From UHGV virus genome UHGV-0174779: a DNA stretch of 64,000 nt; one strand, given 5' to 3'. The notes beneath the pieces were generated by a model. The model was not told the DNA's origin. It did no database searches and saw nothing but the letters and a program-made list of their open reading frames with translations. The first letter of the stretch is position 1; each line of letters starts with the position of its first letter. This document shows, in pieces, positions 48,904-49,692 of the stretch. This stretch comes from a virus. The translations under genes and the position numbers were made by a program.

Positions 48904-49048
48904 ATGTAGGGTTGACCTACCTCTTTTAGAGAGTGCTCAAGGAAAGGCACTAGCCACTACGTTGGAGTGGTATCAGGACCAGTACACAGAATGTGCTGCT
49001 AATCACAATGGATTGTTAGAAGCTCTGAAAGAGCGTGGAATAGAATAA
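48788..49048 (+). CDS. o-spanin (Rz1-like outer-membrane lipoprotein), overlapping the i-spanin gene in the +1 frame
   Basis: Internal start of ORF 48689..49048: [20 protein letters not shown] lipobox, Pro-containing mature part; begins inside the i-spanin gene and extends past it. Confidence 0.55.
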
Positions 49049-49692
49049 TGGCGAAGAAGACAACACCTACAAGATACCGCATTCACGGAATCCCTATTAA
49101 GTATATCGCAAACTATGAAGAGTTTTACAGAGCGAACTGGAAAGTAGTTCACAAGTTCTTCATGTATGATATCAGAGATTACCATGAAGCAGAAGATGTG
49201 GCACAGGAAGTGCTCTTGAACGCTTGGAGATTTGTCTTCGCTAAGCAGGATGAGAGAGTCCTAGAGGATGAGAAAGACCAAGAGCATATGACTTATCGAG
49301 TCAAGAATATTATCTGGTCTATACGTTCAAACAGGCAGACTGTAGGGGACCGTCGTATCTACTCAATTCCAGAGGCTGATATGTTCCGTACCCCTGATAT
49401 GGTGGACAGTCCTTTAGAGATTGCTATGGATAAACAAGACTCTGTTGGTGACCCATTCATGGAGTCTCGTATCTTCTATTTCTTCCAAGATTTAAGTGAT
49501 ACGATGGATACTCAGAAGTTAGCCAATATGTTCTCTATGATCTTCTTAGGAATACCTCATGACCATATTCAGAAAACTATTGGAATGTCACATGGAACAT
49601 TTTATCGTCGATATGCAGAGTTAAAAGATCTGTATGAATATGTAGTAGAGAAGCATTTTGATAAAGAAGAACTTCGAGGATTGACAGCATGA
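49048..49692 (+). CDS. Sigma-70 family (ECF-like) sigma factor-like protein
   Basis: 214 aa; [16 protein letters not shown] resembles sigma region 2; C-terminal [16 protein letters not shown] resembles region 4 helix-turn-helix. Confidence 0.55.

Follow-up and report, generated by a model that had tools for sequence, protein, structure and literature searches.

The window, by which we mean the whole 64,000-nt stretch of viral genome UHGV-0174779 that was analyzed, carries a gene for a 214-residue protein that an earlier note, made from the letters alone, had assigned to the sigma-70 family. The open reading frame is real, and it is tightly packed among its neighbors: it shares bases with the upstream stop codon at its start (TAATG) and with the next start codon at its end (ATGA). 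In a direct comparison, 207 of the 214 residues (96.7%) are identical to gp36 of coliphage phiEco32 (phi32_36, YP_001671781). The gene, its surroundings and the gene for its partner protein are as follows.

48517-48534, plus strand: strong terminator-like hairpin, AGCCACCttcgGGTGGCT followed by T6, directly after the gp40 homolog and before the gp39-gp38-sigma genes
49048-49692, plus strand: phage sigma factor gene, gp36 ortholog, ATG start, 214 aa
49689-49958: 89-aa open reading frame after the sigma gene, an arrangement shared with phage LAMP (gp33.1)
32497-32745, plus strand: gp79 ortholog, 82 aa, with 81 of 82 residues identical to phi32_79; matches PDB 9m7y chain G (E=5.8e-51)

Megablast searches with the surrounding 5 kb and with a 25-kb piece matched ~100 records of coliphages in the phiEco32 group (Gordonclarkvirinae: Kuravirus, Suseptimavirus), the closest relatives being phage LAMP and the Bas92-94 phages at ~92-93% nucleotide identity. 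Judged by these matches, the window is a Kuravirus (Gordonclarkvirinae).

The sigma gene occupies the same position in the middle-gene cluster as in phiEco32. By contrast with phiEco32 (record L001, 3365-5924), window positions 48900-49960 lack gp37 (macro/Appr-1-p domain), gp35 (GTP-binding) and gp34 (dNMP kinase), as does phage LAMP; gp37 is the preceding neighbor of the sigma gene in both phiEco32 and SU10. The gp36/gp79/promoter system is intact in a LAMP-like lineage that lost several sigma-adjacent genes. The hairpin at 48517-48534 lies between the P40-like promoter described below and the sigma gene, which implies attenuated or read-through expression of the latter, and the sigma gene is likely to be expressed first by read-through from upstream promoters.

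Orthology to gp36 and conservation of contact residues

The seven differences from phiEco32 gp36 (S21A, K28R, V29A, F209L, Q210R, I213T and T214A) all fall outside described contact or functional sites. A phmmer search of the PDB with the 214-aa protein matched chain F of 9m7y over residues 1-212 (E=3e-142), and the protein is a full-length match to PHROG 1740, ‘RNA polymerase sigma factor’ (E=1e-44). A tblastn search located the gene in 99 records of phages; identity is 95-99% in 71 of these, and in many of the 99 the product is labeled ‘ECF sigma factor’ or ‘RNA polymerase sigma factor’.

General sigma-factor profiles recognize the protein far less readily. Pfam Sigma70_r2 (PF04542) gives a real but sub-threshold match to residues 24-62 (E=7.8e-4, 19.6 bits where the cut-off is 24), neither Sigma70_r4 nor r4_2 matches at E<=10, and the NCBIfam sigma70-ECF model TIGR02937 covers residues 23-192 at E=1.5e-5 but reaches 24.7 of the 42.9 bits that its cut-off requires; several NF00xxx ECF subfamily models also match, far below their own cut-offs. 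No cellular sigma factor appeared at E<1 in the phmmer search of the PDB, and a single-sequence AlphaFold2 model (pLDDT 52, pTM 0.47) was of too low a quality to use in a fold search. By curated profile the protein is therefore sub-threshold for the sigma-70 family, and its place there is secured solely by the ortholog's structure; because sequence profiles alone give a weak assignment, we base the sigma assignment on gp36 orthology.

The relevant structure is the cryo-EM model of E. coli RNA polymerase with gp36 and gp79 on promoter P68 (PDB 9m7y; Xu et al. 2025, PMC12276001). In that complex, an N-terminal sigma2-like domain of gp36 (residues 1-103) sits on the clamp helices, a C-terminal sigma4-like domain (138-214) sits on the flap-tip helix, and a long linker (104-137) passes through the active-centre cleft in the manner of sigma3.2. 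Several features are unusual, as the first helix is rotated by ~70 degrees, helix 4 is shorter, and the flap-tip helix is rotated by ~100 degrees (PMC12276001). All 23 residues named in that study for contacts are identical in the window's protein, with roles taken from PMC12276001:

D44, E47, E49, D50, E54: clamp-helix binding, all identical
Y83, R84, W90: fork-junction stacking and phosphate contact, all identical
E79, H80, S91, S94, N95: base-specific -10 contacts, all identical
M138, I142, F166, L167, F204: flap-tip-helix groove, all identical
Y186, R187: -35 contacts, both identical
F146, M164, L167, I169: gp79-docking groove, all identical

Both motifs that the earlier note had picked out are present and fall at telling places in this map. 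The region-2-like motif (residues 45-60) lies in the helix that carries the clamp-binding residues D44, E47, E49, D50 and E54 of gp36, and the region-4-like motif (178-192) contains the -35-contacting residues Y186 and R187. On every feature that could be tested by sequence comparison, the protein belongs to the gp36 family.

Promoters and polymerase genes in the window

[quoted passage not shown] Six gp36 promoters have been mapped (P6, P13, P26, P40, P58 and P68), with the consensus tAATGTAtA and a start 6-8 bp downstream (PMC8948821). In the window, exact TAATGTATA occurs six times where 0.61 copies would be expected, and 100 shuffles never gave as many. Four of the exact copies and two one-mismatch sites are the counterparts of all six phiEco32 promoters, with the same variant 9-mers before the same genes (compared with Table S3 of PMC8948821). 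One-mismatch matches to TAATGTATA are not enriched window-wide (22 versus 18.8 expected), so meaning is attached solely to exact copies and to the two syntenic sites with one mismatch. The six counterparts are:

38948-38978, plus strand: P68-like middle promoter, GGTAGTAGATAT (-37 to -26) and aAATGTATA (from 38970), 40 nt before the gp68-homolog ATG at 39018
43222-43230, plus strand: P58-like middle promoter, TAATGTATA, upstream of the gp58 homolog (ATG 43267)
47681-47689, plus strand: P40-like middle promoter, TAATGTATA, upstream of the gp40 homolog (ATG 47749), heading the gp40-gp39-gp38-sigma string
56134-56142, minus strand: P26-like late promoter, TAATGTATA, upstream of the gp26 homolog (probable true start ATG 56095)
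2221-2229, minus strand: P13-like late promoter, TAATGTATA, upstream of the open reading frame at 1654-2187
10439-10447, minus strand: P6-like late promoter, TAATGTAgA, upstream of the gp6 homolog (ATG 10427), sequence identical in phiEco32

The P68-like element is identical to phiEco32 P68 (Table S3, PMC8948821), and it has the -37 G and -34 A that are contacted by R187 and Y186, respectively, in the published structure (PMC12276001). The late P13-like and P26-like elements are both preceded, at roughly -38 to -30, by TAAGAC(T/C)TA. As the P68-like site and a divergent site considered in the last section have GGTAGTAGATAT instead, sequences in the -35 region may distinguish promoter classes.

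Two of the late-gene regions have further peculiarities. The P6-like element ends 11 nt before the ATG, and with a start 6-8 nt downstream the leader would be 4-5 nt, making the gp6 message nearly leaderless; an AGGAG Shine-Dalgarno sequence would fall upstream of the transcript start. The phiEco32 P6 region (record L004, 1677-1700) has the same sequence as window positions 10427-10447 on the minus strand. Near the P13-like promoter, an extra exact TAATGTATA lies at 2311-2319 (minus strand), where its first TAA is the stop codon of a gene for a 404-aa Ig-domain protein. An intrinsic terminator hairpin (AGCCGCCttcgGGTGGCT and a T-run) follows ~35 nt past this site, just before the P13-like promoter. 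The 2311-2319 site is not found in phiEco32, whose Ig-domain gene is much shorter.

The earlier note had also held that host-type promoters drive the early genes, and the window is consistent with this view:

12641-15128, plus strand: cluster of six strong matches to sigma70-type promoters heading the early block, all with a perfect TTGACA and 10 to 12 of 12 consensus positions

One of the six is a 12/12 match. Sigma70-like matches across the window are not above chance and lie below the shuffle expectation; the evidence for early promoters is accordingly their clustering and their agreement with the published phiEco32/SU10 layout. Another 12/12 consensus (TTGACA-17-TATAAT) lies at 44356-44384 (plus strand), in the opening 60 nt of the open reading frame for DNA polymerase (44329-46173). 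The corresponding polymerase CDS of phage LAMP is annotated as joined from two pieces.

No RNA polymerase was found among the 21 open reading frames of at least 300 aa in the window, all scanned against PHROGs and/or Pfam, which bears out the statement in the earlier note that none is visible. Large open reading frames to which a function is assigned encode portal, terminase, scaffold, capsid, tail and ejection proteins, a primase/helicase, a family-A DNA polymerase (PF00476, the only family-A polymerase), a nucleotidyltransferase and amidoligase-type enzymes; the others are conserved but without known function. Among them, the homologs of gp26 (1450 aa) and gp25 (549 aa) have no Pfam match and belong to PHROGs of unknown function. 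Roughly 4-13 kb of the genome lies outside the window and corresponds to phiEco32 gp14-gp19, which encode tail fibers, holin, endolysin and a tail protein. The phiEco32 gene list contains no RNA polymerase. The RefSeq label ‘RNA polymerase’ on phi32_50 (record L002, 785-913) is an artefact, the product being a 42-aa member of PHROG 1312, which is of unknown function. The label ‘polymerase’ on the 87-aa phi32_127 (L002, 37657-37920) is likewise no evidence for a phage polymerase.

A probable gp36/gp79 scheme for middle and late transcription

phiEco32-type phages are without an RNA polymerase gene of their own; host RNA polymerase with sigma70 reads their early genes, and the same enzyme with gp36 reads the middle and late genes (PMC12276001). 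gp36 co-purifies with host RNA polymerase from infected cells, and with E. coli core it forms a holoenzyme that transcribes middle and late phage promoters in vitro (PMC12276001, PMC8948821, PMC4281155). A sigma factor of the gp36 kind is encoded by all phiEco32-like phages (Lavysh et al. 2022, PMC8948821), and gp79 homologs occur throughout the phiEco32 subgroup (PMC8948821). gp79 inhibits the host sigma70 and sigmaS holoenzymes and co-activates the gp36 holoenzyme. By itself, it binds the clamp, and its N-terminal helix enters the RNA channel and dislodges sigma4 of either sigma70 or sigmaS; when gp36 is present, the same helix docks on the C-terminal domain of gp36 and transcription rises 3- to 4-fold (PMC12276001).

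We regard it as nearly certain that the gene at 49048-49692 is a phiEco32-type phage sigma factor, the gp36 ortholog of a Kuravirus coliphage, which works with gp79 on host core RNA polymerase. Given 97% identity to the phiEco32 protein, the window's protein would be expected to share its core binding and promoter specificity and to depend on the same gp79 mechanism. In such a scheme, host RNA polymerase with sigma70 would read the early genes from strong consensus promoters, and gp79 and the phage sigma would be among the early and middle products. gp79 would settle on the RNA polymerase clamp with its N-terminal helix in the RNA exit channel, and the resulting displacement of host sigma region 4 would turn off host and early transcription. 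The phage sigma could then take the freed core, with the acidic helix (D44, E47, E49, D50, E54) of its sigma2-like domain on the clamp helices, its linker running through the active-site cleft in a sigma3.2-like manner, and its sigma4-like domain on the flap-tip helix, where docking of the gp79 helix would stabilize it. This holoenzyme would read the single strong element tAATGTAtA, with AATGTA centered at -11.5, together with a weaker -35 contact, and so transcribe the middle (P68, P58, P40) and late (P6, P13, P26) operons.

The central proposal of the earlier note, that the phage redirects host RNA polymerase with its own sigma factor, is supported by the identity to gp36, whose biochemistry is published. 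Its picture of a phage sigma for the middle and late genes stands, but it leaves out the small partner gp79, also encoded in the window, by which host sigma4 is displaced and gp36 is stabilized. The note was right about a system already described for phiEco32-type phages, and pull-down and in vitro transcription experiments of the kind that it had suggested were carried out with the ortholog in 2008-2012, while the structure came out in 2025 (PMC12276001, PMC8948821).

Could the protein instead be a canonical ECF (group 4) sigma factor, held by a cognate anti-sigma and directed to a bipartite -35/-10 promoter? Its best generic matches are to ECF-type models, many record annotations call it ECF, and the two-domain architecture without a sigma3 domain is that of the group (PMC12276001). 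Indeed, bacterial ECF factors such as E. coli sigmaE resemble gp36 in having a minimal sigma2 plus sigma4 organization, a linker through the active-site cleft and an acidic helix that binds the clamp helices (PMC12276001). All of the ECF models nevertheless fall far short of their cut-offs, Sigma70_r4 does not match, and the gp36 structure deviates from the ECF pattern in the rotated first helix, the short sigma4 helix and the flap-tip helix (PMC12276001). Docking thus differs between the two, and gp36 recognizes mostly one -10-region element with the help of a small partner (PMC12276001). The single element tAATGTAtA dominates the promoter (PMC12276001, PMC8948821), and gp79 activates gp36 and does not sequester it (PMC12276001). 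We therefore consider a canonical ECF factor very improbable, and the label ‘ECF sigma factor’ a loose fit for a protein with no anti-sigma partner, a single-element promoter and atypical docking of both domains.

Two other explanations are more remote still. An ordinary helix-turn-helix regulator with sigma-like motifs by chance could account for sub-threshold generic profiles and for the lack of cellular sigma factors at E<1 in the PDB search, but it is hardly credible when a 97% identical gp36 occupies the sigma position on RNA polymerase and confers promoter-specific initiation in vitro (PMC12276001), all contact residues are conserved and cognate promoters are rightly placed. A decaying or redundant sigma copy, with late transcription by something else such as a polymerase in the 4-13 kb outside the window, might be imagined since the window is not the whole genome and sigma-adjacent gene content differs from phiEco32, but we give it next to no weight: the reading frame is intact, its seven substitutions are all off functional sites, gp79 and the six promoters are intact, the missing segment holds tail-fiber and lysis genes in phiEco32, and no relative is annotated with a real RNA polymerase.

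The gp36/gp79 reading can be placed among other phage strategies for retaining the host polymerase. Within the same phage group, SaPh711_gp47 of Salmonella phage 7-11 is a highly diverged phage sigma that likewise forms a stable holoenzyme with host core and serves late genes, but it is ~15% identical to gp36 and uses a bipartite GTAAtg-(16)-aCTA promoter, and phage 7-11 is without a gp79 homolog, host shut-off or a middle class (PMC8948821). The window's protein clearly falls in the phiEco32 subgroup and outside the 7-11 subgroup.

More broadly, T4 AsiA and MotA also keep the host RNA polymerase and re-target it in a temporal cascade. gp79 parallels AsiA in that it represses sigma70-dependent initiation and co-activates the next class of genes. 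In T4 middle transcription, however, host sigma70 is remodeled, whereas here a complete sigma2 plus sigma4 protein replaces it. The phage sigma factors T4 gp55 and SPO1 gp28 re-target host RNA polymerase likewise, and gp55, which has no sigma4 domain, depends on gp33 and the sliding clamp. We detected no sequence relationship to T4 AsiA/MotA, T4 gp55 or SPO1 gp28. The sigma factor in the window is an isolate-level copy of one of the best-characterized phage sigmas, for which genetics, biochemistry and cryo-EM are published; its main use lies in clean annotation, fixing the identity of the phage (Kuravirus) and the temporal classes of its genes.

In the PDB phmmer search, the gp79 ortholog matched TAL-effector repeat proteins weakly by whole-sequence score (E=1e-8 to 3e-4), and no single stretch passed on its own. 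These may be a compositional or repeat-summing artefact or a faint helical-repeat resemblance.

A divergent promoter candidate beside P40

One further site resembles a gp36-type promoter:

47609-47639, minus strand: additional gp36-type promoter candidate, GGTAGTAGATAT (47628-47639), a 10-nt spacer and TAATGTATA (47609-47617)

Its TAATGTATA block lies 63 bp from P40 and points in the opposite direction, against the middle genes, and the spacing from GGTAGTAGATAT to TAATGTATA is the same as in the P68-like site. Both blocks are kept in phiEco32 (L001, 2099-2129, minus strand) and in ECBP2 of the genus Suseptimavirus (record L005, ~1823-1855, minus strand), with a diverged spacer, and an IMG/VR scan found exactly two copies of the two-block pattern in each of four complete genomes. 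The site is absent from the published table of six promoters (PMC8948821), and Pavlova 2012 may mention it; nothing pertinent on divergent or antisense promoters of phiEco32 came up in the literature searched.

The candidate faces a conserved non-coding region between the gp40.1 and gp40 homologs (47325-47602), in which an 11-bp inverted repeat (AAATAGAGAAT ... ATTCTCTATTT) surrounds tandem AGTCCCTA repeats and a GCAGGnnnnnCCTGC hairpin is also found. Rfam has no match in window positions 46900-47800. Minus-strand RNA of this ~280-nt stretch folds somewhat better than shuffles (z=-2.28). Tentatively, and leaning somewhat against it ourselves, we put forward the site as a possible seventh gp36 promoter that would give a ~280-nt non-coding or antisense transcript over the structured intergenic region. 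If so, the divergent transcript could serve as a regulatory RNA, block early read-through or prime replication, and the unlisted candidate is in that sense a small lead.
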